In this document: positions 4,362-64,000 of the stretch, one piece after another
How positions within the stretch are numbered: the first letter of the stretch is position 1
Layout of the letters: every line of letters starts with the position of its first letter
Origin: Patescibacteria group bacterium
GTDB lineage: Bacteria > Patescibacteriota > JACPGU01
Assembly (NCBI GenBank): GCA_022703645.1
Contig: JAKLDG010000001.1
Span: 507,918-571,917, forward strand
Length of the DNA: 64,000 bases
Direction of reading: 5' to 3'
Translations under genes and position numbers: made by a program
The notes under the pieces: model-generated
The model's database searches: none
What the model saw: only the letters and a program-made list of their open reading frames with translations
What the model was told of the DNA's origin: nothing

Positions 4362-5135
4362 TTATGGTATTGTGCAATTTTGCGTAACAGTAGGCTTAGC
4401 GCCCGTACAAAAACTGTCATTTACTATAACTCCGTCCGATCTTCGGCAATAAACATTCCTGCTTTGTGTCCCATTATTACCAAGTACACAACTTCCCCAA
4501 TTACCCCAAGCGCCATTAATTGCCAAAGTAAATGTAGCCTTAACATCTTTGGCAGTATCCATCGTCACTGTACAGAGATTATTAGTACCGGTACAAGCCC
4601 CACTCCAACCGGTAAAAGCAGAGCCAGCGGAAGCGTTTGCCTTCAGCGTTATTGAACTATTATACATTTTATCTACATAACAGCTTGTACCACAGCTGAT
4701 ATCTCCGGCAGGATTAGTAGAAAGGACTCCCCCGGAACCAGTACCATCTTTGGTAACAGTAAGTCTATAAGTTTGAACAGAAAAGTTTGCCCTTACAAGA
4801 CCATTCCCCGCGCCAAAAGTAAAAATAGCAGGGTTAGAGTTTGGATCAGAAATAGAACCATTACTAGAAAGCACCGCCCAGTTAGAAAAAACATATCCGG
4901 GTTTAGCTGTAGCCTTAATTTCCCTAGTAGAACCGACTGCCCCGGGACCAGCCCCGCTTGTCGTACCCCAACTACTGGGATTAACCTGAAGCGCAAGATT
5001 ATAAGTGGTTTGCGCGAACCCCTTAATCGTACCGCCAACAAAAAAAACCAAAACTGCAATAACTAAAATCAACATCAATAAAATATTGCTTTTTTGCTTT
5101 GCTTTCTTATTTGTATTTATATCTATCGGATCCAT
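4362..5135 (-). CDS. Secreted protein with two InlB-B-repeat-like domains and a C-terminal thrombospondin-type-1-like repeat
   Basis: N-terminal signal anchor (LLMLILVIAVLVFFVGG). Repeats of the G.G.V...A.A.PGY.F..W.....N.....T...NA.F type appear twice. The C-terminus reads NGAWGNWGSCVLGNNGTQSRNVYCRRSDG...C...QNC. Confidence 0.6.
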   Translation of the reverse strand: MDPIDINTNKKAKQKSNILLMLILVIAVLVFFVGGTIKGFAQTTYNLALQVNPSSWGTTSGAGPGAVGSTREIKATAKPGYVFSNWAVLSSNGSISDPNSNPAIFTFGAGNGLVRANFSVQTYRLTVTKDGTGSGGVLSTNPAGDISCGTSCYVDKMYNSSITLKANASAGSAFTGWSGACTGTNNLCTVTMDTAKDVKATFTLAINGAWGNWGSCVLGNNGTQSRNVYCRRSDGVIVNDSFCTGAKPTVTQNCTIP

Positions 5136-6822: not shown

Positions 6823-7242
6823 TTAATGTATTTTTGCAAAGGCTGCCTTTTCCAATTTCTTAACACGAATATCTAAATCTAAGAAATCTTTTGAATCAAC
6901 TTTTGTTTTCAATTTCTCTCTAACCGCTTTAATCTCTGCTATTATCGCTTTTTCCATTATTCCCATACTATCAATCTTTTTCTCAACAAAATCCAATCTT
7001 TCAGCAAGGCCGTCAAGCTTACCTTCCAAGATGCCAAATCTCTTGTCAACCTGTTCAAATCTATTATCAATGTCATCCAATTTTTTGTCTACTCTTTTAA
7101 AGTTTTTATCAACAATAACAGCCAAACCGTTAACTTCATCTGAAATTTTTTGTGAAAGCAATGTTATTACCCTTTTCTCTGATTCTTTAATAGAACCATC
7201 AACAATTCCCTTAATTTTTTCTAAATCATTTTGATCTAGCAT
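6823..7242 (-). CDS. Coiled-coil hypothetical protein
   Basis: 139 aa, strongly heptad-like and charged (KKLDDIDNRFEQVDKRFGILEGKLDGLAERLDFVEKKID). It has no TM and no recognisable catalytic motif. Confidence 0.45.
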   Translation of the reverse strand: MLDQNDLEKIKGIVDGSIKESEKRVITLLSQKISDEVNGLAVIVDKNFKRVDKKLDDIDNRFEQVDKRFGILEGKLDGLAERLDFVEKKIDSMGIMEKAIIAEIKAVREKLKTKVDSKDFLDLDIRVKKLEKAAFAKIH

Positions 7243-7510: not shown

Positions 7511-8497
7511 ATGAAGAAAAAAAGCAAAAAAAGATTTCATTTTTATTTATCTATGCTTTTTTTTGTGTGTCTAATTTTTTCAGTATTGAGCACTTTAAAG
7601 ATTGGCGCCGAAGCAGGCTCTGCTAATCATTTTTTTAGAAATCAATTAAACAAAAATCCGGAAGGATCTGGAATTCAAAGTATTAAAATATCCGGCATCG
7701 CAGGTAATATATATAGCTTCCTCTATGCTGGTCAGAGCCAAAGTAATCTAACGCTTGCACCGGGTGAAAGCGCAGATCTTTCGTTAAGTCTAAAAAATAC
7801 CAGCACTACCTATTGGGACAGAGGAACATTTCACCTTGGTACTAGTCATTCACAAGACCGAAATAGCATTTTCTCTGATGATTCATGGCTTTCTGCTGAT
7901 AGAATAGAAATGGATCAAGATATCGTAGAGCCCGGAAATTTTGCGCATTTTGGTTTTACTATCACAGCCCCAGAAAAAAGCGGCATCTACTATGAATACT
8001 TCCGACCGGTTATAGATGGTACCGCATGGCTGCAAGATGTAGGAATATTTTGGAAAATTACTGTTAAAAAACCAACTGATGATATTTCTGCTCTTCCTAT
8101 TTATAATAAAATCGGCGTCAAAAAGATTGTGATTTCAATTAGTTCTCAGAACCTGAAATGTTATGAAGGCGCAGATATTGTATGTGATTTCAAGATTTCT
8201 TCCGGAGCCCCAGGTCTCGATACACCAATCGGCAATTTCAAAGTTGAAAAGAAAAGAGATGTCGCCTACTCTGCTGCTTATGACCTATATATGAATTATT
8301 GGATGGCTTTCACACCAAACGAAGCCTATGGAATTCATGAATTGCCTTATTGGAAATATTCTTGGGGCACAGTTACAGAAGGCGCAAATCATCTCGGAGT
8401 TAAAGTCTCGCATGGCTGTGTCAGACTTGGTATTGGGTCAGCAAAACAAGTCTACGACTGGGCTCCAATTGGAACGCCAATACAGATAGTTGATTAA
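7511..8497 (+). CDS. L,D-transpeptidase (YkuD family) with an N-terminal Ig-like (NBR1-like) domain
   Basis: Signal peptide. The C-terminal catalytic domain carries the diagnostic SHGCVRL motif (HLGVKVSHGCVRLGIGSAKQVYDW). The N-terminal ~120 aa (LAPGESADLSLSLKNTSTTYWDRG...FTITAPEKSGIYYEYFRPVIDGTAWLQDVGIFWKITV) is homologous to three domains in the giant protein at 60146-64000. Confidence 0.85.
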   Translation: MKKKSKKRFHFYLSMLFFVCLIFSVLSTLKIGAEAGSANHFFRNQLNKNPEGSGIQSIKISGIAGNIYSFLYAGQSQSNLTLAPGESADLSLSLKNTSTTYWDRGTFHLGTSHSQDRNSIFSDDSWLSADRIEMDQDIVEPGNFAHFGFTITAPEKSGIYYEYFRPVIDGTAWLQDVGIFWKITVKKPTDDISALPIYNKIGVKKIVISISSQNLKCYEGADIVCDFKISSGAPGLDTPIGNFKVEKKRDVAYSAAYDLYMNYWMAFTPNEAYGIHELPYWKYSWGTVTEGANHLGVKVSHGCVRLGIGSAKQVYDWAPIGTPIQIVD

Positions 8498-8548: not shown

Positions 8549-8550
8549 AA

Positions 8551-8621
8551 CAGGGGTGGTAGGAATCGAACCCACATCATTGGTTTTGGAGACCAATGTC
8601 CTACCATTGAACGACACCCCC
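8551..8621 (-). tRNA. tRNA-Trp (anticodon CCA)
   Basis: The reverse complement folds as a cloverleaf with anticodon loop CTCCAAA, T-arm GTGGG-TTCGATT-CCTAC, and acceptor GGGGGTG/CACCCCT with discriminator G. It closely resembles the E. coli tRNA-Trp anticodon arm (GGTCTCCAAAACC). Confidence 0.8.
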
Positions 8622-8762
8622 GCATCGCAGTGAGTTCCGTGCTTTCCATAAAAATTCAATTAAGAATTTTTCCTTCAAGCATTCCACACTGCTCCTTTTA
8701 CGAAAAAATCCGACTATATATTTTGGTATAGATTTTTTCGTTACTAATTCAAAGATTTTTAT

Positions 8763-8933
8763 TTATTTCGCTTCTTTATGCGGTGTATTTGCTCTGCATC
8801 TATTGCAAAATTTTACCAACTCCAATTTATCAGGAGTATTTCTCTTGTTTTTGGTCGTGTGATAATTTTTTTCTTTACATTTAGTGCATTCAAGAGTTAC
8901 TAATCCTCTTGGCCCCTTACTTTTCTTTGCCAT
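8763..8933 (-). CDS. rpmG: 50S ribosomal protein L33
   Basis: A 56-aa ORF not in the supplied track: [56 protein letters not shown]. It has the characteristic L33 CxxC...CxxC zinc-ribbon and the [11 protein letters not shown] motif. It sits in a tRNA cluster next to tRNA-Trp, as in many bacteria. Confidence 0.85.
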
Positions 8934-9019
8934 GTCTTCTTCCCGACATTACGTCGGGACTCCTTTTAATTAATACTTTATAACTTTTAACTTTACAACA
9001 TAATAGTTATCTATGCCAA

Positions 9020-9092
9020 AGCCGTTGTCGGGAATCGAACCCGAGACCTTCACCTTACCATGGTGACGCTCTGCCAACTGAGCTACAACGGC
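9020..9092 (-). tRNA. tRNA-Thr (anticodon GGT)
   Basis: Reverse complement GCCGTTG-TA-GCTCAGTTGGCAGAGC-G-TCACC-ATGGTAA-GGTGA-AGGTC-TCGGG-TTCGATT-CCCGA-CAACGGC-T. The cloverleaf is canonical and no CCA is encoded. Confidence 0.8.
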
Positions 9093-9162
9093 AAAAGAAA
9101 AATATAGTCGCGGAGCAACACCGAATTTTTAATTTTTAATATTTAATTCTGGTTTTTTATAA

Positions 9163-9235
9163 AGCCGCCCATCGGACTCGAACCGATGACCTGCCGCTTA
9201 CAAGGCGGCTGCTCTACCAACTGAGCTAGGGCGGC
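9163..9235 (-). tRNA. tRNA-Thr (anticodon TGT)
   Basis: Reverse complement GCCGCCC-TA-GCTCAGTTGGTAGAGC-A-GCCGC-CTTGTAA-GCGGC-AGGTC-ATCGG-TTCGAGT-CCGAT-GGGCGGC-T. Confidence 0.8.
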
Positions 9236-9239
9236 GAAA

Positions 9240-9322
9240 TGGTGGGAGCAGGATTTGAACCTACGAAGGCCGAAGCCAACAGATTTACAGTCTGTCCTCG
9301 TTGACCGCTTGAGTATCCCACC
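9240..9322 (-). tRNA. tRNA-Tyr (anticodon GTA), type II with long variable arm
   Basis: Reverse complement GGTGGGATACTCAAGCGGTCAACGAGGACAGACTGTAAATCTGTTGGCTTCGGCCTTCGTAGGTTCAAATCCTGCTCCCACCA. It is nearly collinear with E. coli tRNA-Tyr, with anticodon loop CTGTAAA. Confidence 0.85.
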
Positions 9323-9353
9323 ATAAAATTTTTAATTTTATAATTTTTAATTT

Positions 9354-9725
9354 TTAAAACGAATCTTCAATTGACCGGTCACATTTTCTCGAAATAGCCG
9401 CAAATATCAACGTCAGCTCATGAGCCTCCAACCATAATATCCTACATCTCCTACATCGATCAATATGGCTCTCATTTGAAGTTCCTATCATTCTTAGCCA
9501 ATACTTTGTTTCGTTGGCTTCTTTTTGACAAATTCGTGTTTTGTTCTTAAAATCCTTCTTACTGCTTGCTCCATTAGCTTCCATATAATTAGCTCCGATA
9601 CTTGTTGCTGATCTAACTATCTGAGAAATTAAAGGTCTCGATATTTCATTCCCGTCAATCCCCATGCAAAATTTTATAACATTTTCACCAAACCGCGCAA
9701 CCCTCTCTTCTAAATCATAGTTCAT
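9354..9725 (-). CDS. Four-helix-bundle protein (TIGR02436 / '23S rRNA intervening-sequence protein' family)
   Basis: 123 aa with the characteristic segment SQIVRSATSIGANYMEANGASSKKDFKNKTRICQKEANETKYWLRM. This family is very common in CPR genomes near rRNA/tRNA loci and introns. The gene is flanked by inverted copies of AATTTTTAATTTTTAA (9343-9358 and 9753-9768). Confidence 0.7.
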   Translation of the reverse strand: MNYDLEERVARFGENVIKFCMGIDGNEISRPLISQIVRSATSIGANYMEANGASSKKDFKNKTRICQKEANETKYWLRMIGTSNESHIDRCRRCRILWLEAHELTLIFAAISRKCDRSIEDSF

Positions 9726-46689: not shown

Positions 46690-47880
46690 TTATAACTTTA
46701 TACTTTCAACTATCCTTTCCATCTTCATTCCCCTTGAACCCTTTACCAATATTATATCATTTTTTTGTATAAAACTCCATATTTCTTGGCTTGCTATAAG
46801 CGAATTTTCAAACCAAGTTAATTTTGGCCCAAGGTCTTTTTTATATTTATCAAAAACTTTTTTCATTTTTTCACCAACTAAAATAACAAAATCCGCATTA
46901 CCTTTTAGCTGTCTGCCAATACTCAAATGTAGTTTATCGCTTTGATCCCCAAGTTCCAACATATCAGCAAGTATAAATACCCTTCTCCGTTTTATCGTAT
47001 CAGTATTTTTGATATCATTTACTATTTCAAAAGCTGCCAACATACTTTCAGGATTTGCATTATAAATATCACTGATTATGATTGAACCGTTTATTCCATT
47101 TATTATGTTTGTCCGGTCTTTGGGTAATCTATAATTTTCCAGATTCTTTTTTATTTCTTTTAAAGTCATTCCATAAATAATACCGCAGCAAACGGCAGAG
47201 AGAGCGCTATATACATTGTGTCTTCCAACTACTTTTAAATTTATTTTTTCTTTCTCTTTTTTGTAAATTAAATCAAAACTTAAACCGTCTTTCGTTGATT
47301 TAATTTTCTTTGCAACGACATCTGCGCCATCATCTGTCCCATAAAATAATATATTGCCAATAGTTCTTGTTTTCATTTCGCGGACTTTTTTGTCATCGAA
47401 GTTAAGAACCGCCCAACCATTTTTATCGAGAGATTCTACCAGCGTTCCTTTTTCTTTTGCCACTCCATCTAGATCACAAAAATATTCGAGATGAGAACAA
47501 GCAACTCTAGTGACAACTGCTATGTTTGGTTTTATAAAAGAAGTCAGATATTTCAAGTCCCCTACTCGATCGGCGCCCATTTCTAAAACCAATTTTTCCG
47601 GAAAATTTTTCGAGAAATAAGTTCTGCGAAAAATATCGAAGATATTTTTCGCGCTTTTCGATCCAATAATAGTTAATGGAACACCGATTTCATTATTGAA
47701 ATTCGCTTCATTTTTTCTTGTATTAAATACTGGGGCTAAAACTTCATAAATAGCATCCTTCGCTGAAGTTTTGCCAATGCTACCGGTAACAGCGATAACA
47801 TCCGGATGGAATTTGGTTAGCAGCCTGACGGCGCATTTTCTTAAAATGGATTGAGCTAATGTTTTGATTTGTGATTTCAT
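46690..47880 (-). CDS. murF: UDP-N-acetylmuramoyl-tripeptide--D-alanyl-D-alanine ligase (short form lacking the N-terminal domain)
   Basis: MurF-type motifs: TGSIGKTS P-loop, NFNNEIGVPLTI, YNANPESM and the C-terminal LVKGSRGMKME. It is only 396 aa, so the N-terminal domain 1 is missing. Confidence 0.7.
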   Translation of the reverse strand: MKSQIKTLAQSILRKCAVRLLTKFHPDVIAVTGSIGKTSAKDAIYEVLAPVFNTRKNEANFNNEIGVPLTIIGSKSAKNIFDIFRRTYFSKNFPEKLVLEMGADRVGDLKYLTSFIKPNIAVVTRVACSHLEYFCDLDGVAKEKGTLVESLDKNGWAVLNFDDKKVREMKTRTIGNILFYGTDDGADVVAKKIKSTKDGLSFDLIYKKEKEKINLKVVGRHNVYSALSAVCCGIIYGMTLKEIKKNLENYRLPKDRTNIINGINGSIIISDIYNANPESMLAAFEIVNDIKNTDTIKRRRVFILADMLELGDQSDKLHLSIGRQLKGNADFVILVGEKMKKVFDKYKKDLGPKLTWFENSLIASQEIWSFIQKNDIILVKGSRGMKMERIVESIKL

Positions 47881-48007
47881 AAAATGTTTTAGAAATTTTC
47901 AATTTTCAGTTTTCAATTTTCATTGTAAGTATCGCTTCGCGATGTATTTATTTGAAAATTGAATCATTGAGAATTGATTGAAAATTGTAAATTGTAAAAT
48001 TGGAAAT

Positions 48008-49795
48008 TTACTTTACCAGTCCCTTTTCTCTCTTGATCTGTTCTTCCTTCCATACCTCATCCGGTGGAATTTGGTAATAATTGAGAATGCCTTTTGCCAT
48101 TTCTCCGAAAACCGGAGCGGCTGTAGATTCCGCCCAGATAACATCCTTTGGAACATTTATTCTTACAACCATTACAAAAAGCGGGTTATCCGTAGGACCG
48201 AAACCGATAAATGAACCAATAAATTTATCTGTTTCATAACCTCCGGTTTTTCGAGGAATTTGCGCTGTACCTGTTTTGCCCCCTATGCGATAACCCTTTA
48301 CTCTCGCCTGCTTTCCATGACCTCTCTCTGCAACACTAACCATCATTTCGGTAATTTTTTTTGCTGAATCCTCACTCAACGCTCTTCCAATTATTTTTGG
48401 ATCAACTTTTTGAACCTTTCCATTTTTATCAATATATTCTTTAACAATATGTGGCGCAACCATCAACCCACCATTTGCAACCGCACCCATTGCTTGAGCT
48501 AATTGAATCTCGGTAGTATTAATACCTTGACCAAATGACATTGTCGCTAAATCAACCGGTATCGCATCCTCTTTATCTCTCACTGCTCCTGGTGATTCGC
48601 CATCAATCTCTATCCCGGTACGCTTTCCGAAATTAAAACTATTAACGTAATCATAAAATTTATCTTTTCCTGTTTTCTGAATCATCCAGACCATACCAAC
48701 ATTATCAGAGTTTTCTAAAACCTGAGTCATTGTTTCATAGCCATAAGGTTTTTTCTGTGAATTCCATATTACCGCGTCCTGCACTTTAACATTTGCATCA
48801 AAATATTCTCCGGTTTCAGGTGTTACCGTTCCACTATCAATACCAGCTGCCATTGCAATTAATTTAAACACCGAACCCGGTTCATAGGCATCAGAAATCG
48901 CATTACACTGAAAAATACTATAGTCTTTTACGTCAGTATATTTTGCTGGATCATATGTCGGCCATTCTGCCAGCGCGAGAATCCCTCCGCTTTTTGCATC
49001 CATTACCACGATTGACCCACTGTCTGCTTTGTGGTCTTCTACAGCTTTCTTAACTTGATTTTCTGCCATAAATTGAATGACTCGATCTATAGTCAGAACT
49101 ACATCTTTACCATTCTTTGGCATCACTACTTTGCTGTCAGCAACTGTTATCTGACGTCCAAGAATATCGCGTTCCGAAATTATCTTTCCTTCCTGACCTT
49201 TTAAAACATCATTTAGATAACCCTCAATGCCATATTTACCTTCACCTTCACCATCAACGAAACCTAAAAATTTTGCTCCCATACTTCCTTCTGGATAATC
49301 GCGGTAAGTTTCGGGAATTAATACAATTCCTGGCAATTTTAGGGCCTCAATTTTCTTGCTTACTTCATCAGGCAGCTTCCGCTTTAACGGCGGTATATAT
49401 ACTTTCTTTTCATTTAAAAGCTTTAAAATATCTGCCGCGGGCATATCTATTATCGGTCCCAAACCATTTGCCACCGCATTTTCATCCTCAACCTGCTGTG
49501 GAATAATCATCACAGACCAAAAAGTTTTATTTGTTACCAATGGATAATGGGTATCGCTATAAATGTCGCCAACATAAATTTCACCGCGTGCCGGCATAAT
49601 TTTCTGTTCTTTGTATCTCTGATCATAAGCTAATTGTTCATAGTGCGCATGCTGAATGACTTGCTTTTGAAAAAGACGTATACATATACCTCCAAAAACA
49701 AGCAATACTATAAAGAAAACAAAGGTAATACGCGCTTTTGTACTCCCCTGCTCTTCCATTCGCAAATTTGAACTAACAGCATTAAACCCAAACAT
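48008..49795 (-). CDS. ftsI: Class B penicillin-binding protein (FtsI/PBP2 transpeptidase)
   Basis: TM anchor and PBP-dimer domain. Transpeptidase motifs: SxxK in GSVFKL, SxN in SDN, and KTGT. It holds the ftsI position after ftsL. Confidence 0.85.
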   Translation of the reverse strand: MFGFNAVSSNLRMEEQGSTKARITFVFFIVLLVFGGICIRLFQKQVIQHAHYEQLAYDQRYKEQKIMPARGEIYVGDIYSDTHYPLVTNKTFWSVMIIPQQVEDENAVANGLGPIIDMPAADILKLLNEKKVYIPPLKRKLPDEVSKKIEALKLPGIVLIPETYRDYPEGSMGAKFLGFVDGEGEGKYGIEGYLNDVLKGQEGKIISERDILGRQITVADSKVVMPKNGKDVVLTIDRVIQFMAENQVKKAVEDHKADSGSIVVMDAKSGGILALAEWPTYDPAKYTDVKDYSIFQCNAISDAYEPGSVFKLIAMAAGIDSGTVTPETGEYFDANVKVQDAVIWNSQKKPYGYETMTQVLENSDNVGMVWMIQKTGKDKFYDYVNSFNFGKRTGIEIDGESPGAVRDKEDAIPVDLATMSFGQGINTTEIQLAQAMGAVANGGLMVAPHIVKEYIDKNGKVQKVDPKIIGRALSEDSAKKITEMMVSVAERGHGKQARVKGYRIGGKTGTAQIPRKTGGYETDKFIGSFIGFGPTDNPLFVMVVRINVPKDVIWAESTAAPVFGEMAKGILNYYQIPPDEVWKEEQIKREKGLVK

Positions 49796-49915
49796 ATTCT
49801 CTTTTAATCTTTTAATAAAAAATAAACAAACATAGGAAAATAAAACCTATGTTTTTAAGATACTACCATTATAAGCCTAGAAGCCCGAGAAAGCCAAGCA
49901 AAAGGGCTTTTAAGA

Positions 49916-50272
49916 CTATTTCATAGCCAAAGAACCGCTGATACTACTAAAGTACTTTAATTCCTTCATCGGCACAAACGAAAGATCTTTTGATTTCTCT
50001 GAGATCTTGTTTAATGATTCAAGTCTGGCAGCTTCAACTTGCAATCTCTCATTTTCAGCCTGAACTTTTGCTTTTTTTTGCTCCAGGTCTTGTAAAGCGT
50101 AACCTTTTGTGGTTATCTGGTTTGACTGCGCAAGATAAAATAAGCTAATTAATGAAAATATTAATATTGTAATAAAGCTCAAAGCAACGGGACCAAGCCT
50201 CAAACCACTCTTACGGTATGTAGAGTGATATCTGCCTATTCTTGCTTGTTTTCTTCTATTTAATATTTTCAT
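49916..50272 (-). CDS. ftsL: Cell division protein FtsL
   Basis: 118 aa with a single TM (VALSFITILIFSLISLFYL) followed by a coiled coil (KKAKVQAENERLQVEAARLESL). It lies between rsmH and ftsI. Confidence 0.7.
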   Translation of the reverse strand: MKILNRRKQARIGRYHSTYRKSGLRLGPVALSFITILIFSLISLFYLAQSNQITTKGYALQDLEQKKAKVQAENERLQVEAARLESLNKISEKSKDLSFVPMKELKYFSSISGSLAMK

Positions 50273-50296
50273 ATGTGTATTTATTTGTTTTTTTGT

Positions 50297-51172
50297 TTAA
50301 ATGACCTCTGCGACTCGCATTTTGGCGCTTCTTGATAATCTGTTTTCAATCTGTTCAGATCTGCCCGGCATGATCACTTTTTTATTTATGATTTTTAGAA
50401 TACCTTGTTTGTTTTTTTCTCTTAAAAAATTTTTTACTATTCTATCCTCTCCGGAGTGAAAAGATATTACTACCAGCCTTCCACCGCTTTTTAATACTTT
50501 TAAAGAATTTTCTAATGCTTTTTCTAAGTTTTTAAATTCTTCGTTTACCTCAATTCGCAGAGCCATGAATGTCAGCGTTGCCGGGTTTGTTTTGCCGTGT
50601 TGCGCTTTTACAGATCTGACAATTGCCGCTAAGTCATCTGTTGTTTCTATTCTTTTCTTTCGCCTCACTTCAGTAATCTTTTTTGCTATTACCCTTGCAA
50701 ATCTCTCATCTACATTTTTTAAAACTTCTTCCAATCTTTCCCTGGTATATGAATTTACTACTTTCTCTGCAGTAAAATCTTTATCAAGGTCTAATCTCAT
50801 ATCTAGTGGCTCATTTTTTAAAAAAGAAAAACCCCTACCACTTTCTTTTATTTGATAAAGGTTTGTCCCCAAGTCGAATACAATCCCATCAACTTTGCCA
50901 ATGTCATTTGATAACAGAATGTCAGCAACATCGAAAAAATTACGATTGTATAAAGACAAGTTTTTGTAAGCACCAAATTTACTTTTTGCATTTTTGTAAA
51001 TTTCCTTATCTACTTCTATTCCGATTACGTGACCGGTAAAGTCTTTCTTATTTAATATTTCACCAGTATGACCACCAAACCCGAATGTCGCATCTATATA
51101 TATACCATTAGGTTTGATTTCCAAAGCTTCAACCGCCTCTTTCTTCAATACTGTAGTGTGAATGTTTTTCAT
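50297..51172 (-). CDS. rsmH: 16S rRNA (cytosine1402-N4)-methyltransferase
   Basis: GIYIDATFGFGGHT SAM-binding motif; 291 aa; dcw position downstream of mraZ. Confidence 0.9.
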   Translation of the reverse strand: MKNIHTTVLKKEAVEALEIKPNGIYIDATFGFGGHTGEILNKKDFTGHVIGIEVDKEIYKNAKSKFGAYKNLSLYNRNFFDVADILLSNDIGKVDGIVFDLGTNLYQIKESGRGFSFLKNEPLDMRLDLDKDFTAEKVVNSYTRERLEEVLKNVDERFARVIAKKITEVRRKKRIETTDDLAAIVRSVKAQHGKTNPATLTFMALRIEVNEEFKNLEKALENSLKVLKSGGRLVVISFHSGEDRIVKNFLREKNKQGILKIINKKVIMPGRSEQIENRLSRSAKMRVAEVI

Positions 51173-51230
51173 TATGATTGGGTTTAAGCTTTCTAACTTT
51201 TACTTTTTATCTTCAAGTAAGTAATTAGCA

Positions 51231-51394
51231 GAAGCCTGAAGTCGGTAGGTTTGTTTTTGTTTTTGTTCAAAACATTTAGGATGGAGGTTCCCGCCCTTTC
51301 TTGAGAACAATATTTGTTCGCAAGAAAGGGCGGGATAAATTTTTTGTTTTTGTTTTATCCCGACTATTATGTCGAAATGTTGACTTCAGGCTTG
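51231..51394. repeat. Inverted-repeat / palindromic element (MITE- or REPIN-like) in the unusually long mraZ-rsmH spacer
   Basis: Outer inverted repeats GAAGCCTGAAGTC (51231-51243) and GACTTCAGGCTTG (51382-51394), 12/13 matched. Flanking T-rich direct repeats (TTTGTTTTTGTTTTTGTT at 51251 and TTTTTTGTTTTTGTTTTAT at 51341). A central 45-bp near-perfect GC-rich palindrome CCCGCCCTTTCTTG-agaacaatatttgttcg-CAAGAAAGGGCGGG (51290-51334) has a loop that is itself a hairpin. Confidence 0.6.
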
Positions 51395-51632
51395 TTATAA
51401 AAATCTTTTAAGAAGCCTCTGATAAGCAATATTTAGTTATAAAATTTAAGATTTTTTAGATAAAATTCATGAATAAAATTTTGAGTTTAGTTGATACTAA
51501 GCGAAAAATTTTTGAAAGAATTTTAGCAAAAAAGATAAATTTTTAACAAATACATTGTTTGTCTGAGGTTTCTTCTTCCTCCTAAAAGATCCTTAATCAG
51601 TTTTTAAATGCGGCTACGTATTTTGCGATTTT

Positions 51633-52064
51633 TTAAACTCCAAGAGACGAGAGTTTATCCGCAATATCTGAGGAATTTTTCTCGATATTTGCTTCATACT
51701 TCTTCCAGGCACTCTCGTCCCAGATCTCTATTCTGTTATAGAGTCCTGCAACGACAATGTCTTTCTTTAGATGAGCAAAATCCCTCAAATATTGTGGCAA
51801 AACTATTCTTCCTGTTTTATCAGGAACGATATCCATTGCTCCTGCAAGCATTAAACGTGCGTAATCACGTGCTGATTTATCAGTAGTTGGCATATTGCCG
51901 AGCTTCTCAGCAATCACATCCCACTCTTTTTTTCCGTACATAAACAGGCAGTCATCCAACCCGCGAGTCACTACAACACCTTCGTGAAGTTCGCCTCGGT
52001 ATTTTGGAGGGGTTGCAATCCTTCCTTTGTCATCAATTGTGTATGAATACTCGCCAATGAACAT
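51633..52064 (-). CDS. mraZ: Transcriptional regulator MraZ
   Basis: MFIGEYSYTIDDKGRIATPPKYR... contains the duplicated SpoVT/AbrB-like MraZ halves; it is the first gene of the dcw cluster. Confidence 0.9.
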   Translation of the reverse strand: MFIGEYSYTIDDKGRIATPPKYRGELHEGVVVTRGLDDCLFMYGKKEWDVIAEKLGNMPTTDKSARDYARLMLAGAMDIVPDKTGRIVLPQYLRDFAHLKKDIVVAGLYNRIEIWDESAWKKYEANIEKNSSDIADKLSSLGV

Positions 52065-52348: not shown

Positions 52349-55300
52349 TTATTTCAATCTTGTATTCTTTATTATCTTTTCAATCTTAGTAGTGTTGGTA
52401 CCATATTTACCTTCAAACGTGAATTTGGTATCAAAAGCTGAAGCAGTGGTTAACCCTTGAACATCAAAGGTTATCACAGTTGAACCATTATTAACAACTA
52501 GCCCAGTAACACAATTACTTTTTACTGTTAATGGATTACCGTCTGCGTCAGAAGCCCCAACTACCTTGTAGCCTGATGGCATAGATGCGCAGGCTTTGAC
52601 GGTCCAGTTGGTAGTAGATTCAAGAACAAATTCGTAAGAATGAGAGTTAACACCAGCGCCCCAGACCACAGATTCTGGGTAAGTCAGGTTAAGATTTGCT
52701 GGAGTAGTAATAAAGTCTTCATCACCTGGGTCTACTGCTACACAAATCTTGTTGGCATCTTTAGAGCTACATTTAACCTTCACACTCTTCATAACTTTGT
52801 TGTTCATCTTTGCTACCGGTCCTTTATTGAAGTTAAACTTATCAGAAGTTAATTTTCTACAAATGGTAGTAGTATGAGTTGAACTATCTACCGGATCGGA
52901 GATAACCACACGGGTAGCAGTGATATAGTTATCAATCTTAGGAAGAATGATATATTGAGAACTCTTTGTAATTGCAGCTTCTTTGGTGGTTGCTGTGTTA
53001 CCATCATATATAGAAGCACATTGAGCCTTAACCTTCTTGTCGAAGTCTTTAGATCCTAATGCAGTTATTAATGCTGCTTGGGTATAGACTTTGGTATTAA
53101 CTGAATCGATTACTTCTCCACGAGAGTCCCCTACTGGCCCAGGAATTAGAGAAGTTTTTGCTGATTTCTTTTCCTTACCATTTACTATGCCTGCAAAACC
53201 TACAACATCTTTACTATACACTACATGCAGATCACCTGTAGCTAATATAGCAGCTTTTACTGAAACGCCTAACGCAAATCTAGTAAAGTGAGTTGTAGTA
53301 AATGTTATATAGTAGTTAGAACCAGAGATACCAGTATCAGTAATGTTGTCATGATCAGCCCAGGTATTCCCTGCATCGGGAGAAAAGAATACATGGACAT
53401 CAGTAATAGCATAGCCAAGACTGTCCAAAAGAGCCTTATCAATCTTTAATGTTATTGTTACTGGAGAATTGAATGTCAGACCATCTGGTGAAAATTCATA
53501 TGAAGTTAATCCATCATATATACCGAATGGACCGGTGATCATGAAGTTAGATCCTGTTCCATCAATGCTGATTGTTGTGTCAGTGGAAAGCGCGCCAGCA
53601 GGAACAGTGATAGAAGCATTTGTGTCTGGAGTTGTAAGAGTAGCCCCCGCACTGGTAACCAATCCTGAAACATAAGCAGGGTTAGTTGGAGCAGCATTAG
53701 AGATGGAAATACTATTAATCTCAGGGGTAGAATTAGGATCGTTTGACATTAAGATTGTTTTATATTGAATGTACTGTCCTGTTGGAGAGCCAACTGGTTC
53801 TCCGGAATTACCATGATTTTGCCAATCAGACCACGCGCCTGAATATATTTCAAATTCATTAATGGCTACTGTATTAACTGCGCCTTCATCAACTTGTTTG
53901 GTGATATGTAACCTGAGTTTCCTTGTCTCAACTGTACTGAAGGATATTGAGAAATGATTATTAGAATTATTACCAATAACTTGTTGGACAGTATTCCAAT
54001 CAGAATCTACGGTTGGCTCACAATTATTATCATCTACACATACCTGAATATCAAAATCTACAGGATACATTTTTGTGCCGTACCATAGATCAACTTTAGA
54101 TACTTTGGTTGGAGATGCAAAATCAACCGCTACCCATTGAGGATTGGATGGCGATATTGATGATCCATTATCTTCGCTCTGCCAACCACTAAATTCCCTA
54201 TCACCATCAGCGATATTTGATACGTCACCAAATGGATAGTTTGGTTCTCCAGAACTAGATGAAAGATTTTTATTTAAAATAATATTTGTAATTGGATCAG
54301 CAGCAGCAGTTCGAGTCTGTAATGTTATTGATGTGCCAGCAGGAGTATTTGCAGTCCAGTCAATCGTACCCCAGTCTGTCTGGGCTCCAGTATTAATTAT
54401 GGAGGAAACCAAAGATGAAGAACCCGAATAACCTAACGGACCCAGCTTCTGCGCGTAAATTTGTGTGTTTAGCATACTATAGTCTTCCCATGCAGTGATT
54501 GCGCTTCCGGTTTCTGCTGTAGTTAAAACGGGAAAGCTTTGTCCGGCAGCTTTAGTGGCAATCGCCAAGCCATCTGCTCCCCACAAAGTGTTGCCGAAAG
54601 AATCTATATCTTGTCCATAAATATCAGAGTTCATACCGGAACGAAAATCGTTCCATACGATTATAGCACCTCCGTTGCCATCAGAAGCAATCTGATGGTC
54701 AAACTGAACTTGACCAAAATAATTCGAAACCGCTACTCCCGCAGGATTCCATATTAAAGAACCGGAAGAGTCAATTTTTTGAGCATAAATATTATATGTA
54801 GTTGGCGTATTGCGATCGTCAGCCCAGCTTATTATTGCGCCACCGTTGCCATCTGAAACAATTTTAGAATATACTTCCATACTTGTCGTAGTCGCGATTC
54901 CAACTCCATCTGCCTGCCATTTTATTGCCCCGGAGCTGTCAACTCTCTGGGCATAAACATTATTATCATTTGGGCTTACTCTATCATCCGACCAAGTTAC
55001 TATTACACCATTGCTACCATCCGATGTAATCTGCGGATCCTGACCACCATTTATCGTTACTTCAGCCCATTGCAATGAACCGGAACTACTAATTCTTTGC
55101 GCAAAAAGACCAGAACCATTTTGAGTGATATTAAGACCATCCCAAACCACTATCGCACCGCCTGAACCATCCGAAACCAATTTCGAATTTGAGTCCCTAT
55201 AAGTATTATTAGTAGAAATCTTGACGCCGTCCGTTGCCCATTGGAAAGAACCTGACGAATCTAATTTTTGCGCATAAACATGATATTGCCAATTTCTGCT

Positions 55301-56056: not shown

Positions 56057-56119
56057 TTTTTATTTTTCCTTTTTTTACTTTTTATATTAATATGACTTAA
56101 GTTTGATGATTTTTAAATT

Positions 56120-57163
56120 TTATTTTATCTCTTGATTCAATTTACGATTTTTTTCCTCCTGCTTCTGTAACTCTTCAAGTAACTTTTTTGCTTCCTTTAC
56201 TGCTGCTTTATTGGGATTCTTTTTTGGACCGATGGTAACTTTTATGCTTTTTATACCTTCTATATTTCCTGCCTTATCGACCGAATAATAATAAACCGTA
56301 TATTCGCCTGCTCCACTTAATTTGATTGGCGAAGAATAAACATTAAAATTTCCAGATTCTCCGGTTCTATAATAAGTTTTTTCTACCCCAGATTTTACTG
56401 TTGAACTTGGCGGAAGAGCAGATAATAAATCTGGCTGACCAGAAATACTGTCAAAAACAATTCTACCTTCACTTGGTACCGGCAATAAAGCGGGGTGATA
56501 AAAACTGTTTCCACTATAACTAAACGCTTTTGCAAAAGCATCAACATTTATTCCGTATTGAGAAAATTGTTGTGGATCTTTTGTATCATATAGAGTCATA
56601 TGAACCGTATCAGAACCAATGTTTGTTGTAACTAGATATACATAAATGTCCTGCGGTTCTGAAAAAGGTTGTCCGCCGGAATAATTTGCTTCTAATTCAT
56701 TTAATGATAAAGTTGCAGGAAGCAAGCCACTGCCACTTTGGCTGCTGGAGAATAAAACTGCAGGAGAATACGTACCGCCGGTTGAAAATTCATCCATATA
56801 GCTCACCCCGTTAAAAGACATTCCAGTTCGCGCTAGTTCATAACCACCGTTGATATTCTCGACAATTGATAAATCAGGCTCGCCATCTATCTTATTGATT
56901 TCAGCAGCTGCGCTTCCTCTTCCAACTTTTTTAATCTCATCAGTTGCATTTAATACCACCTCTGCTTTGTCTTTGAAATACCAGCTTCCATCAGATGTTT
57001 TTGTTTTAGCACCTGTAACTTTTGCGGAAGTTAATGGTGCGATAGTATCACCAGCTAAAAAAGCAGAAGTCTTAATAACACCCACCCCTACAACAGCTAA
57101 CACCAATAATGTTAATAATGGTAATTTATATCTTGAATTGTTTTTCATATTTTTTCCTGTCAT
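56120..57163 (-). CDS. Secreted Ig-like-domain hypothetical protein with a Lys/Glu-rich coiled-coil tail
   Basis: 347 aa. Signal peptide (LLTLLVLAVVGVGVIKTSA), a Big-like strand (EYTVYYYSVDKAGNIEGIKSIKVTI) and a C-terminal KEAKKLLEELQKQEEKNRKLNQEIK. Confidence 0.45.
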   Translation of the reverse strand: MTGKNMKNNSRYKLPLLTLLVLAVVGVGVIKTSAFLAGDTIAPLTSAKVTGAKTKTSDGSWYFKDKAEVVLNATDEIKKVGRGSAAAEINKIDGEPDLSIVENINGGYELARTGMSFNGVSYMDEFSTGGTYSPAVLFSSSQSGSGLLPATLSLNELEANYSGGQPFSEPQDIYVYLVTTNIGSDTVHMTLYDTKDPQQFSQYGINVDAFAKAFSYSGNSFYHPALLPVPSEGRIVFDSISGQPDLLSALPPSSTVKSGVEKTYYRTGESGNFNVYSSPIKLSGAGEYTVYYYSVDKAGNIEGIKSIKVTIGPKKNPNKAAVKEAKKLLEELQKQEEKNRKLNQEIK

Positions 57164-57186
57164 GTTTGTAAAATTGCTGATATTAA

Positions 57187-60126: not shown

Positions 60127-60145
60127 TTTTTATTTCTTTAAAAGT

Positions 60146-63100
60146 TTATTCAACGGTTAACTGCCAATAAATTCCTTTATCTTCCATCCAAACCAATCCT
60201 TCAACTACTGGCGTAAAATATGACTTATAAGTCCCGGCGTCCGCCGGAGCTTTAATTTTAAATGTAAATCTTCCTACTTCTCCTGGTTTTACTTCTGCTG
60301 TATCAAAAGAAGTACAGCGGTTTGGAGCTATCCAGTCGCTATTCGCAAATTCCGAAGTATAATCTTTTTGCTGAGTTGGACTTCCATAAATAGAGCCTGT
60401 ACCGAACCTAACTGGATTTGCACCGTCTTTGAACCAGCTAACCGTACCCGTGTTTTTCAGTTCAATCCAAACTTCAATCTCCTCCCCCGCTGAAATCTGG
60501 GTAGGATAGCCAGACTGACCGACTACCTCATAACCGTAAGTTGAAGTTGAACCTAAAATATCATATTTCAATAACCAGTCAGAATAAATAACATTTGCAC
60601 CACCGTCTAAACTGAGATTAGTATACTGATCTTGATTTAGTTCAACCAATCTTCTCCATTTCTCCTGATCGCCATAGAGTTTCAGCGCTATCCATTGCAG
60701 ATCTTCACCAGGTTCAACCTTATAGTAGCCGAATTCACCTGTTGGAGCTACCGTAGGTAATTCTTTAAATCTTAGTTTCCATCCTGCAACTATTATACTT
60801 GGATCACTTTCCAATGAAGGGAATATATCTTTATTTAATTCGACTAATCGCGTCCATTGTTCTTCATCCTGAAATAATTCGCGGGCAATTGATTTCAGCG
60901 AATCGCCATCTTGAACTATATAATAATCCCCTATTATTTTTTGCACTTCTGGCTGAGCTTGAGGAACTGGTTGAGAAACCGGCTGTGATTGATTTTCTGC
61001 TATTGGTTCTGATGTTTGTTGAATGTTGCCAAATCTCAATTGCCACTCACTATATATAATGTCAGGTCGGCTAACCAGACTTGGGAATGTATCTTTATTT
61101 AATTCTACGAGATCTCTCCACCTTTCACTATCGCCATAAACTTTTTCTGCAACTGTCTTAAGGTTTTCTCCTGGTTGAACAGTATAAATCCCTGAATCAC
61201 TTCTGACTGAAATTTCCCAGAATAAACCAATATCATTCATCCATCCTGTTCCATCAGCAACTGGAGTAAAATATGCTTTGTAATTTCCAATTTGCGTTGG
61301 AGCTTTAATTGTAAATTCGAACCTTGCCGTATCTCCCGATTCAATAAGAAAGTCTGGGATACTGGATGCTCTGTTTGGTGATAACCAATTTTCAGCGGCA
61401 AACTCAGAAATATAATCTCTTTTTTGGGCAGAGCTTCCAAACGATGACCCTGTTCCGAGACGGACATTACTGTCCCAAGCAACAGAACCGGTATTTTTTA
61501 CTTCAACCCAAACATCGGTAGTCTCGCCAGGTTTTAAAGTGCTTGGGTATGGTGATTGAGATACCAGTTCATAAGAATATATTAGTTGTGGTTCCGGTTG
61601 GATTTCAACTATTGGTTCAGGCTGTACCTCAGGTTGAGGTTGGACTTCGGGCTGTTCTTGACCATCTCCTACAACCGTAACTTCCCAATACAAACCAATA
61701 TCAGTCATCCAAGTTACTCCGTCTGCTACCGGTGTGAAATAAGCTCGATAAGTACCAGGCGTCGTTGGAGCTTTGATTGTAAATTGAGCCTTGGCATCGT
61801 TGCCTGGTTCAACATAGCTGCTGATTGCAGTAGAGTTTGGATTAATTATCGAAGTAGGTCTGTTTACAGATAGCCAATTGATATTTGCAAATTCTGATGG
61901 ATAATCTCTCTGTTGACTTGGACTACCATACATAGAACCGGTTCCGAGACGAACTTTGCTATCCCAAACAGCTGTACCGGTATTTTTTACTTCTATCCAG
62001 ACATCGGTTGTCTCACCCGGTTTTAGTGTACTTGGATATGGAGACTGAGAAACCAATTGATAATTATAACCTTCAACTGGAATGGTTTGCTCAATCTGCT
62101 GTTCTGGTTGTACTATTTCTTGCGGCTGCTCAGGTATTTCAGGTATTACCTCTGGCTGTAATATCTCTTCTGGTTGTTCTAACTCCGGCTCTTCGATAAT
62201 AGGTTCCGGTTCGGTTACCTCTACATTTTCACTAAATATTATTGAATCTGATACAGAACCTGAAACATTTCCTGCCGCGTCTTTATATTTTGCATAAACT
62301 GTTTTTGTACCATATCCAGTTGCCAAAGCCCAAGCCTTCGAATTAACAAACGTCTCCCAGCTGCTGCCGATAAAGTAAGCGTTGTTAGAAATCATCATTG
62401 ATATGGCATCAGTAGCGCCCAACGTCAGGGTAACGCTTGCCGATGCAGTTGAGCTTGCTCCGCTATTAATTGAGATAGAAGTGTTGGTCGGAGGTGTTGT
62501 ATCTTGAATTAGATTATTTCCTCCACCACTATTGTTTTGCTGGCTAACACTAATACTCCAAGTATAGCTTTCTGGCGTTGCATCGCTATTTCCTGCCAGG
62601 TCAACCGCGTAAACATAAAATGTGTGACTGCCATTTGCCAAACCTGAATAATTCTTTGGGCTGGAACAAGTAGTATAATAGCTACCGTCTATTTTGCATT
62701 TAAAAGTTGAAGACTCATCCGCGCTAAATACGAAAGTAGCGGATGAAGAAGTTGCGTTTAACGCCGGTGTAGAAGATAGAGTAGTTTCTGGAGGGATACT
62801 TTCAATTATATAACCATTTTCTATCCCAAAACCTGCGCCACTAATAGAATCCAGGGCTTTGATTTTTAGATCACCACTGCTTGTAATTGAAATCGAACAG
62901 TTCACTGTATAGCTATCAACCTGCGTACAAGCAAAATCAGTGAAACCAGCGGTAGTAGCTCCATCTACTGAAACACCGGCGCTATCAACTCCCCCGCTAT
63001 CGGTAATATGAATTGTCGTATTTGTAATATTTGCCGAAGAAGCTTTCGTTGGAGCAGAAATCGAAATAACTGGAACCGTAATAGTCACCGCGTAACCATT

Positions 63101-64000
63101 CTCGCTCTGTTCAGAGGTATTGGAAACCAGATCAAAGGCTTGGATTTTCAGATTACCGGAACTTAATAAACGGATTGTGCAATCTACGGTTTTGATATCC
63201 GTTTGTGTACAGTTTAAATTATCGTAATCATCTATTGTATTTTCATCATCTATAGAAACATTGACCGCTAATATTTCATTATCATCAGTGACATGAATTG
63301 CAGTATCAGTAATGGCACTATTAGAAGTTTTCGTTGGTGCAGTAATTATAATTACCGGACCAGTATTATCGATTACATAGTTATTTTCTGTCTGTGTCCC
63401 TTGATTATTAAATGAATCGAGAGCTTTGATTACTAAATTACCTGAAGAAGAAATATTTATGGAACAATCTACCGTTTTCGCATTAGTTTGAATACAAGAA
63501 AATCCGCTAGTTCCGGCAGTAGTTGAAGTATCTATTTCAACACTATTAGCCAAGACCCCAATATTGTCAGTAATATGAATCTCGGTCGTGGTAATTGCAG
63601 CATTTGAAAGTTTATCCGGAGCGCTGATGATTATAACTGGAGCTGAAGAATCAATGACATAACCATCTTCTTCCCCAGATATTTGATTTGATGCGCCGTC
63701 TTCAGCGCGAATTACCAATTTGCCTGAACCGGAAATTTCGATTGCGCAATCTACTGTACTACTATTGGTTTGAGTACAGCTGAAATTGCTATAAGCAACT
63801 GTGGTTGATGGATCGACTAAAACACCACCGGTAAAAATAGCGCCATTATCTGTAATATGAATAGTAGTATCAGTAACCAAACTGCCAGCAGTCTTGGTTG
63901 GAGCCGTGATAGAAACTACTGGGTTAACCATATCAATGATAAATCCATTTTCAGTTGCTACTGAATTATTAGCTACTACATCAGAAGCGCTAATTGCCAA
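60146..64000 (-). CDS. Giant surface protein, partial (N-terminus beyond window end): five Ig-like ~90-aa repeats, a Cys Ig-like domain, three NBR1-like domains shared with the L,D-transpeptidase, Glu/Pro-rich linkers and four LysM-like repeats
   Basis: >=1284 aa. Repeated units IISAPDKLSNAAITTTEIHITDN...NGYVID. A domain TFVFSADESSTFKCKIDGSYYTTCSSPKNYSGLANGSHTFYVYAVDLAGNSD. Three copies of (Y.Y.LVSQSPYPSTLKPGETTDVW.EVKNTG...W...RLGTGS...F.IKAPT..G.Y.AYFTPVADG..WM.DIGL.WE..V). Four copies of Y.V.PGE.L..(I/V)A.K.YGD.E.W..LVELN.D..PSL...P.II...W.L.F. The ORF is open to the window edge. Confidence 0.6.
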   Translation of the reverse strand: MAISASDVVANNSVATENGFIIDMVNPVVSITAPTKTAGSLVTDTTIHITDNGAIFTGGVLVDPSTTVAYSNFSCTQTNSSTVDCAIEISGSGKLVIRAEDGASNQISGEEDGYVIDSSAPVIIISAPDKLSNAAITTTEIHITDNIGVLANSVEIDTSTTAGTSGFSCIQTNAKTVDCSINISSSGNLVIKALDSFNNQGTQTENNYVIDNTGPVIIITAPTKTSNSAITDTAIHVTDDNEILAVNVSIDDENTIDDYDNLNCTQTDIKTVDCTIRLLSSGNLKIQAFDLVSNTSEQSENGYAVTITVPVISISAPTKASSANITNTTIHITDSGGVDSAGVSVDGATTAGFTDFACTQVDSYTVNCSISITSSGDLKIKALDSISGAGFGIENGYIIESIPPETTLSSTPALNATSSSATFVFSADESSTFKCKIDGSYYTTCSSPKNYSGLANGSHTFYVYAVDLAGNSDATPESYTWSISVSQQNNSGGGNNLIQDTTPPTNTSISINSGASSTASASVTLTLGATDAISMMISNNAYFIGSSWETFVNSKAWALATGYGTKTVYAKYKDAAGNVSGSVSDSIIFSENVEVTEPEPIIEEPELEQPEEILQPEVIPEIPEQPQEIVQPEQQIEQTIPVEGYNYQLVSQSPYPSTLKPGETTDVWIEVKNTGTAVWDSKVRLGTGSMYGSPSQQRDYPSEFANINWLSVNRPTSIINPNSTAISSYVEPGNDAKAQFTIKAPTTPGTYRAYFTPVADGVTWMTDIGLYWEVTVVGDGQEQPEVQPQPEVQPEPIVEIQPEPQLIYSYELVSQSPYPSTLKPGETTDVWVEVKNTGSVAWDSNVRLGTGSSFGSSAQKRDYISEFAAENWLSPNRASSIPDFLIESGDTARFEFTIKAPTQIGNYKAYFTPVADGTGWMNDIGLFWEISVRSDSGIYTVQPGENLKTVAEKVYGDSERWRDLVELNKDTFPSLVSRPDIIYSEWQLRFGNIQQTSEPIAENQSQPVSQPVPQAQPEVQKIIGDYYIVQDGDSLKSIARELFQDEEQWTRLVELNKDIFPSLESDPSIIVAGWKLRFKELPTVAPTGEFGYYKVEPGEDLQWIALKLYGDQEKWRRLVELNQDQYTNLSLDGGANVIYSDWLLKYDILGSTSTYGYEVVGQSGYPTQISAGEEIEVWIELKNTGTVSWFKDGANPVRFGTGSIYGSPTQQKDYTSEFANSDWIAPNRCTSFDTAEVKPGEVGRFTFKIKAPADAGTYKSYFTPVVEGLVWMEDKGIYWQLTVE

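Follow-up and report, generated by a model that had tools for sequence, protein, structure and literature searches.

Why should a peptidoglycan cross-linking enzyme and a surface fibre share a protein domain? The question is raised by a 64,000-nucleotide stretch of DNA from an uncultured, ultra-small Patescibacteria group bacterium (GenBank assembly GCA_022703645.1, contig JAKLDG010000001.1, positions 507,918 to 571,917 of the forward strand; "the window" below means this whole stretch), in which the gene of a 328-residue L,D-transpeptidase (7511..8497, plus strand) and that of a giant surface protein (60146..64000, minus strand) encode homologous immunoglobulin-like (Ig-like) modules, one in the former and three in the latter. 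The analysis described here assigns the module to a large family of bacterial domains distantly related to the FW (four-tryptophan) domain of human NBR1. As for its role, we give about an even chance to a non-catalytic module that binds some part of the cell envelope, with wall glycan or peptidoglycan as the likeliest ligand.

Four copies of one module in two genes

The open reading frame (ORF) of the transpeptidase comprises an N-terminal signal peptide or membrane anchor, the FW-like (NBR1-type, PF16158-related) Ig-like module and a YkuD domain, the module being delimited by BLASTP, hidden Markov model (HMM) comparison and AlphaFold2 (AF2) modelling to residues 68-186 (7712..8068, plus strand). 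In BLASTP comparisons with SEG masking on, residues 67-186 of the transpeptidase match residues 807-933 of the giant protein (42% identity, E 1.4e-25), residues 68-185 match 645-776 (40%, E 6e-23) and residues 68-186 match 1155-1284 (31.5%, E 4e-20), with no likeness between the two proteins outside the module. The homology that the initial annotation had proposed between the N-terminal domain of the enzyme and three domains of the giant protein is thus borne out (BLASTP E 4e-20 to 1e-25), and the strings and the motif that it quoted agree with the sequence and with the family consensus. The similarity also survives low-complexity masking: the values are identical with SEG off, and since masking changes nothing, low complexity is rejected as its cause. 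A chance or compositional artefact, for which the only arguments would be that Ig-like repeats are common in general and that Pro/Glu-rich low-complexity sequence lies nearby, is ruled out by E-values of 1e-20 to 1e-25 under SEG, by a family HMM match of E 7e-44 to the transpeptidase module and by a confidently predicted fold.

On the minus strand, the three copies of the giant protein span residues 641-776 (copy 1, 61673..62080), 804-932 (copy 2, 61205..61591) and, at the very C-terminus, 1152-1284 (copy 3, 60149..60547), with family HMM E-values of 5.7e-44, 3e-45 and 1.1e-48, respectively. They are mutually 48-65% identical (65% between copies 1 and 2), and the module measures about 125-135 residues. 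Neither tblastn nor the family HMM, run on all six-frame ORFs of at least 50 residues, detected a further copy in the window below E = 1. Two details of the first description have to be adjusted. The interval 7650-8070 (residues 47-186) does contain the module but slightly overshoots it on the 5' side, the domain proper being 7712-8068. Moreover, the four segments are homologous, as stated, but "the same module" triplicated is too strong, because the transpeptidase and giant copies are distinct subtypes of a very large family, the giant copies having a longer loop (GTGS.YGS..Q.RDY.SEFA).

Fold, conservation and distribution of the module

An AF2 model made for the transpeptidase module only, from an alignment of 55 diverse family modules, is an eight-strand beta sandwich (predicted local distance difference test score, pLDDT, 95.3; predicted template modelling score, pTM, 0.86). 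When this model was searched with Foldseek against the PDB, the FW domain of human NBR1 came first (4OLE, E 1.5e-5, template modelling (TM) scores 0.69/0.72) and that of human ILRUN second (6VHI, TM 0.66/0.75), with every other Ig-like domain ranking lower. Together with the matches of PF16158 (N_BRCA1_IG) to both proteins, this ranking supports the NBR1-type Ig-like fold suggested from the sequence pattern. The Pfam scan itself gave a divided answer. The giant protein scores 71.9 bits (E 7.7e-20) over three stretches, the best being 1167-1263 in copy 3, well above the 28-bit cutoff, but the transpeptidase module reaches 22.9 bits (E 1.3e-4, residues 81-166), under that gathering cutoff. All homologues scanned with Pfam reach the cutoff. 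The membership of the transpeptidase module is therefore indirect: the profile of the 55 modules scores it at E 7e-44, and the proteins from which these modules were taken pass the PF16158 cutoff.

The fold and the assignment to the NBR1/FW family are accordingly supported, and the relation to NBR1 is distant. Shared with the FW domain (PF16158, IPR032350, cd14947) are the Pfam family, the beta-sandwich fold, the KNTG..W motif and the AP..G.Y..[W/F] strand. Structural alignments of the transpeptidase module with NBR1 and ILRUN show only 13-15% identity, and the family profile matches 4OLE with E 0.0015, being alignable only in the KNTG..W region and the AP..G.Y strand. The module has four tryptophans, W102, W126, W173 and W181, conserved in 100%, 96%, 89% and 44% of the family. 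In the HMM alignment to 4OLE, where the C-terminal part is unaligned, only the KNTG..W tryptophan coincides with one of NBR1; the NBR1 "SHW" tryptophan corresponds to F105 and the "FMW" tryptophan lies in an NBR1-specific insertion. Unlike the NBR1 domain, the copies studied here are extracytoplasmic rather than cytosolic and usually occur in tandem (2-9 copies).

A further difference from 4OLE is a conserved loop. Among 326 module copies, N37 and W43 (module numbering) are conserved in 100% and W67, R72 and F88 in 96%. Residues 53-72, which correspond to 112-131 of the transpeptidase and form no strand in the AF2 model, are among the best conserved parts (D57 76%, R58 80%, S60 84%, F62 81%, W67 96%, R72 96%), with the consensus P.DR.S.F....W...NR, and have no aligned counterpart in NBR1 4OLE. 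The transpeptidase copy departs from the consensus elsewhere: it reads KNTS at 7796-7804 (residues 96-98), where 94% of the family, including its 69%-identical ortholog, has KNTG, a substitution at one of the family's most conserved positions.

Other Ig-like families come less close. CARDB, NPCBM_assoc (NEW3) and Fn3-like E-set Ig domains give weak overlapping Pfam matches and share a [KR]N.G hairpin motif, but PF16158 scores higher wherever both match, and the fold search ranks FW first. On the transpeptidase, Pfam at E<=1 reports YkuD, N_BRCA1_IG and a weak Fn3-like match only, and no Big-type family. A profile search of the PDB also returned antibody light-chain V regions (E 1e-3 to 1e-2); these were discarded as homologs, the weak matches being probably a matter of convergence in the A-strand, because the motif SQSP..L..SPGE, at module residues ~13-30 of all copies (e.g., 7748-7801), is nearly identical to the kappa-chain sequence "TQSPATLSLSPGE".

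The distribution of the module was explored by an exhaustive HMMER search of 1.84 billion cluster representatives with a profile of the four copies, used in place of a word-indexed homolog search that had returned 0 (transpeptidase module), 8 (four-copy profile) and 4 (55-sequence profile) matches. It retrieved 4,490 protein clusters at E<=1e-3, 547 of them at E<=1e-30. Between 2 and 9 copies are present in 144/158 retrieved proteins, mostly as 2-5 tandem modules and often at the extreme C-terminus. An N-terminal hydrophobic segment is found in 117 of the top 150 proteins, against 1/147 in an internal control window, which indicates that the family as sampled is extracytoplasmic; many of the top 150 lacking the segment look like fragments that start inside a module. 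Few members carry a source name, and those that do (Candidatus Saccharimonadales, Candidatus Parcubacteria, "Patescibacteria group") are all Patescibacteria.

The non-module parts of the top proteins were clustered and their representatives scanned with Pfam (full proteins in the case of small clusters and singletons), so that the sizes given here are those of clusters of non-module segments. The largest cluster, of 44, is a ~240-residue N-terminal domain with no Pfam match, followed by Amidase_2 (20), SpoIID (17, often in the same proteins as Amidase_2), glucose/sorbosone dehydrogenase (GSDH, 10), subtilase S8 (10), fn3/Big_1/F5-F8-C (7), relatives of the giant protein (4) and a glycosyl hydrolase core (Glyco_hydro_cc, 4). 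Peptidase_M23 is represented by one member of a cluster of 3 and one singleton, and C39-like domains by two singletons; CHAP, YkuD, papain-like C1, trypsin-like, glycosyl hydrolase (GH) families GH6 and GH113, a nuclease/phosphatase fold and cohesin occur in one protein each. Found after a signal peptide in 44 FW-array proteins among the top 150 (e.g., P0011, P0012, P0015), the ~240-residue domain contains a Glu that never varies, within the motif NP.VIL.TLQKEQ(G/S)L, as well as conserved Cys and Tyr. Nothing matches it in Pfam at E<=0.001 or among PDB sequences at E<=1, and it may represent a wall hydrolase not yet described.

Secreted enzymes and surface proteins of Patescibacteria and other bacteria carry the FW-like module as an appendage, as a rule in several consecutive copies. 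The bearers of its close relatives are mostly secreted enzymes of ultra-small episymbionts, and many of these enzymes act on peptidoglycan. The literature calls bacterial FW domains "strikingly diverse in domain structure" and places them usually at the C-terminus (PMC3357945); the bacterial FW proteins that it discusses are mainly XRE-family regulators of the cytoplasm and not wall enzymes (PMC3357945, PMC9233695). Searches of the literature that combined PF16158 or NBR1 with peptidoglycan, cell wall or candidate phyla radiation (CPR) found nothing relevant.

Possible roles of the shared module

From the homology, the fold and family assignment, the extracytoplasmic context, the partner range and the loop conservation we infer both that the module binds and what its ligand would be. 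As a non-catalytic binder of the envelope, the single copy of the transpeptidase, placed between the N-terminal signal or anchor and YkuD, would hold the enzyme at its substrate. The three copies of the giant protein, interleaved with three LysM repeats after Pro/Glu-rich linkers, would help to tether the C-terminus of the fibre to the wall, and the binding surface would include the conserved loop P.DR.S.F....W...NR. Several observations favour this binding role. Peptidoglycan-active domains (Amidase_2, SpoIID, M23, CHAP, YkuD) figure among the partners, and tandem arrays at protein ends would be typical of avidity-based wall binding. FW copies and LysM, a known peptidoglycan-binding domain, stand together in the post-linker C-terminal region of the giant protein. 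The module is paired with YkuD in both domain orders, unlike what a membrane-to-enzyme spacer would lead one to expect, and the highly conserved non-strand loop 53-72 has no NBR1 counterpart.

A comparable behaviour is known from LysM, PG_binding_1, PG4/PG_binding_4 and SH3b, which are likewise non-catalytic, often tandem, attached to YkuD, amidase, M23 or CHAP enzymes, and wall-localising (PMC12729407). The partner range of the FW-like module is similar to that of LysM, PG_binding and SH3b domains, and FW and LysM co-occur in the C-terminal region of the giant protein. The differences are that the FW-like fold is unrelated to theirs, that the module is also found on proteases and on plant-polysaccharide GH families, and that its wall binding is predicted from domain architecture.

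Several points weigh against wall binding. Proteases (S8, C1, trypsin-like, C39-like), the dehydrogenase GSDH, plant-polysaccharide hydrolases, GH6, GH113 and a nuclease/phosphatase fold are among the partners too, so that the module is not specific to peptidoglycan enzymes. The subtype of the transpeptidase is nearest to modules of GH-type and S8 proteins, which speaks against targeting matched to the substrate. In the full-length ortholog, conservation is lower in the module than in YkuD (61% versus 85%), and some of the conserved residues may be structural rather than part of a binding site. After the FW domains, the next Foldseek matches are Ig-like accessory domains of glycosidases, and such domains are mostly structural. 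Experimental binding data for a bacterial FW domain were not found in the literature. Reviews call the function of FW domains enigmatic (PMC9233695, PMC3357945), and the characterised ones are all eukaryotic, with the proteins Ams1, MAP1B and TAX1BP1, not glycans, as ligands (PMC9582228, PMC9233695). The "common substrate or localisation signal" suggested in the initial annotation is plausible, since the partners are for the most part secreted enzymes that act on the wall or degrade polymers and LysM repeats adjoin the module in the giant protein; the suggestion should be widened from two genes to a large family of secreted proteins.

If wall binding is true, the module would represent a new class of wall-targeting domains and the first bacterial function for an FW domain; it would help to explain how Patescibacteria position their lytic enzymes and would hint at an ancestral role of the cargo-binding domain of NBR1. 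A more far-reaching version, which we consider doubtful, holds that extracytoplasmic bacterial FW-like arrays are an unrecognised wall- or glycan-binding class that tethers the wall-remodelling and lytic enzymes and the fibres of Patescibacteria to their own or the host's wall, with the bacterial-specific loop as ligand site, and that the cargo-binding FW domain of NBR1 derives from an ancient surface-polymer-binding domain. A bolder sub-variant, in which the FW module of the transpeptidase would recognise FW-bearing surface proteins and the enzyme would anchor these covalently to peptidoglycan, has a very slender chance at most.

The rival that survives best is a passive spacer or stalk, which would set distance and orientation only, lifting YkuD from the membrane into the wall and lengthening the fibre; we regard it as unlikely, if worth keeping in mind. 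In the transpeptidase, the module stands just where a spacer would, with the membrane anchor before it and the catalytic domain after it, and L,D-transpeptidases with N-terminal BIg domains are known (PMC12729407), the analogy being with the mycobacterial LdtMt2-type. Enzymes of the LdtMt2 class likewise consist of an anchor, one or more Ig-like domains and a C-terminal YkuD domain with SHGC (PMC12729407), but the Ig-like domain studied here is PF16158-related instead of Big-type and is present once, compared with one or two BIg domains. The glycosidase accessory domains among the fold neighbours beyond FW, the very diverse partner enzymes and the faster evolution of the module relative to the catalytic domain would also suit a spacer. 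One relative, P0142, departs from the LdtMt2 layout and has the order signal peptide, YkuD, two FW modules. Its YkuD is 50% identical to that of the transpeptidase and directly follows the signal peptide, and its modules rank 79th and 100th of 324 in similarity to the transpeptidase module; with this order, the modules of P0142 cannot be a membrane-to-enzyme spacer. Many other members of the family have their arrays after the enzyme domain, as the very last part of the protein, and the copies of the giant protein follow linkers and accompany LysM, outside the long Ig-repeat shaft. For a pure spacer it would also be unusual to keep polar and aromatic residues almost unchanged in a long loop outside the strands. 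If the module is a spacer only, the shared domain amounts to routine domain bookkeeping.

A second rival, which appears improbable, is protein-protein interaction as in eukaryotic NBR1, the partner being an S-layer or surface protein, a host-cell surface protein or another FW domain, so that enzymes would be co-localised with the fibre. Proteins are the ligands of all FW domains characterised so far (PMC9233695, PMC9582228), and a relation to NBR1 and ILRUN has support from both the fold and the sequence family. The many lytic partners (amidase, M23, CHAP, proteases) could be aimed by a parasite at a host surface; the named members of the family are all Patescibacteria, and the source organism is probably an episymbiont. 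However, the kinship with NBR1 is distant (13-15% structural identity, sequence E 0.0015), the most conserved bacterial feature, loop 53-72, is unaligned to NBR1, and the window offers no partner protein that could be named. Tandem arrays beside LysM would also be more typical of polymer binding by avidity.

Far less probable still is the idea that, within this genome, one of the two genes recently acquired the domain from the other by transfer or duplication, which would imply a specific functional link between fibre and transpeptidase. Both genes are in the same 64-kb window and their modules are 31-42% identical over the whole length, but the best matches of the transpeptidase module, at 47-52% identity, are in unrelated proteins of other samples (glycosyl-hydrolase-core, S8 and Big-domain groups); among the 324 family modules compared with it, the giant copies come no higher than 47th, 63rd and 106th. 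The giant copies, in turn, have their closest relatives elsewhere (e.g., P0014 at 76%). The transpeptidase architecture, moreover, already exists in two relatives. One, encoded in a Patescibacteria metagenome-assembled genome (MAG; locus L005), is 69% identical over its full length (module 61%, YkuD 85%), and the other is 73% identical over residues 55-328 and keeps the module. Scans of genome contigs and of metagenome contigs for FW-bearing transpeptidases yielded only these two, one each. Because the transpeptidase copy is nearer to modules of other genomes, the sharing reveals no private link of the two genes; on these sequence comparisons, each has therefore inherited its own member of a large family rather than exchanged it recently. 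The sharing is thus real but fairly ordinary, the module being a widespread add-on of secreted bacterial enzymes.

The two genes and their surroundings

The transpeptidase begins with a basic and hydrophobic segment, residues 1-35 (MKKKSKKRFHFYLSMLFFVCLIFSVLSTLKIGAEA; 7511..7615, plus strand), taken from its hydropathy as a signal peptide or membrane anchor (Kyte-Doolittle 2.57 in the best 15-mer); predicted as a helix, it is the sole confident part of a single-sequence AF2 model of the whole protein (pLDDT 35). The YkuD catalytic domain, delimited by Pfam and by alignment to solved structures, covers residues 205-326 (8123..8488, plus strand) and has an intact active-site motif. The YkuD profile (PF03734) scores 66.2 bits against a cutoff of 23.4 (E 6.5e-18, profile positions 3-146 of 146), and the domain can be aligned to the solved L,D-transpeptidases 4xxt, 4lzh, 1zat and 4jmn with SHGC[VI]R kept; these structures cover residues 206-328 only. 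The motif SHGCVRL (residues 300-306), which is SHGCIRL in 4xxt, fits the catalytic motif (S/T)xGC(I/V)R and is unchanged in the 69%-identity ortholog (L005). By profile and motif, the protein is thus a YkuD-family L,D-transpeptidase, with a predicted enzymatic activity. A scan for promoters and terminators around the gene gave nothing above shuffled expectation.

An identical transpeptidase is present on 8 metagenome contigs, where its public annotation is YkuD only, since the PF16158 score falls under the Pfam cutoff; the present analysis adds a second domain, of the FW family, to it. A 2025 review of L,D-transpeptidases lists LysM, PG4, PG_binding_1-type three-helix peptidoglycan-binding and BIg accessory domains, and no FW type (PMC12729407). 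An FW-type accessory domain on a YkuD transpeptidase is therefore an architecture not described in the literature searched, although the domain family itself is known.

The N-terminus of the giant protein is cut off by the end of the window, which holds its C-terminal 1284 residues (60146..64000, minus strand; ORF, Pfam and NCBIfam evidence): Ig-like repeats and Pro/Glu-rich linkers, ending in the order FW-FW-LysMx3-FW. In a closely related assembly (866-kb JGI contig Ga0116241_10000009), whose locus differs from the window at base level, the full length is 3288 residues, and the last 2430 of them contain the same three FW copies and no further ones. The Pro/Glu/Gln-rich linkers, as read from the sequence, flank FW copy 1 (61592..62278, minus strand, a span that includes the copy) and correspond to residues 575-640 (linker 1, 62081-62278) and 777-803 (linker 2, 61592-61672). 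Three LysM-like repeats separate FW copies 2 and 3 (60563..61192, minus strand), at residues 937-990 (61031-61192), 1024-1078 (60767-60931) and 1091-1146 (60563-60730). LysM is supported by Pfam (25.8 bits, cutoff 20.9) and by three stretches matching NCBIfam PRK11198 (E 1.4e-16, under the own cutoff of that full-length model). The protein ends in ...YWQLTVE, with no LPXTG-type motif discernible by eye, nor is there one at the end of the neighbouring 979-residue fibre. This neighbour resembles the giant protein in having a Pro-rich linker followed by two C-terminal LysM repeats; as a paralogous fibre, it has LysM only where the giant protein has FW and LysM.

The window holds ordinary bacterial chromosome genes, such as holB, a PSP1-domain gene, tRNA genes and the dcw cluster. 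Four minus-strand genes are arranged head-to-tail (52349-64000, 46690-52064), encoding the giant protein of 3288 residues, the LysM fibre of 979 residues, a 347-residue protein and a 1235-residue F5/8-type-C protein; this surface-gene group lies directly upstream of the dcw division/wall cluster (mraZ, rsmH, a small ORF, a penicillin-binding protein (PBP)/FtsI gene, a Mur ligase gene and mraY). The LysM fibre (57187-60126, minus strand), of 979 residues in the window, is called with 888 residues in the related assembly (L006 7311-9977). A naive ungapped overlap with L006 gave 4004 mismatches in 17,881 positions, with the flanking 347-residue protein identical; the mismatches were taken as length differences, and strains seem to differ in their surface-protein genes.

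Downstream of the transpeptidase gene, a gap of ~850 bp (8550-9323, minus strand) contains four opposite-strand tRNA genes (Trp-CCA, Thr-GGT, Thr-TGT and Tyr-GTA), after which comes a homolog of the 23S-rRNA-intervening-sequence protein (9354-9725). On the other side, a gene at 4362-5135 (minus strand) encodes a 257-residue protein with InlB B-repeat-like domains (Flg_new_2) and a match to the ADAMTS thrombospondin type 1 domain (PF19030, E 8.8e-7, above cutoff), a domain unusual for a bacterium. Divergently upstream of the transpeptidase gene lies the gene of a 139-residue predicted coiled-coil protein with no Pfam match (6823-7242, minus strand), which is kept in the same position, at 45% identity, in the Patescibacteria MAG that bears the transpeptidase ortholog (L005 5141-5560).

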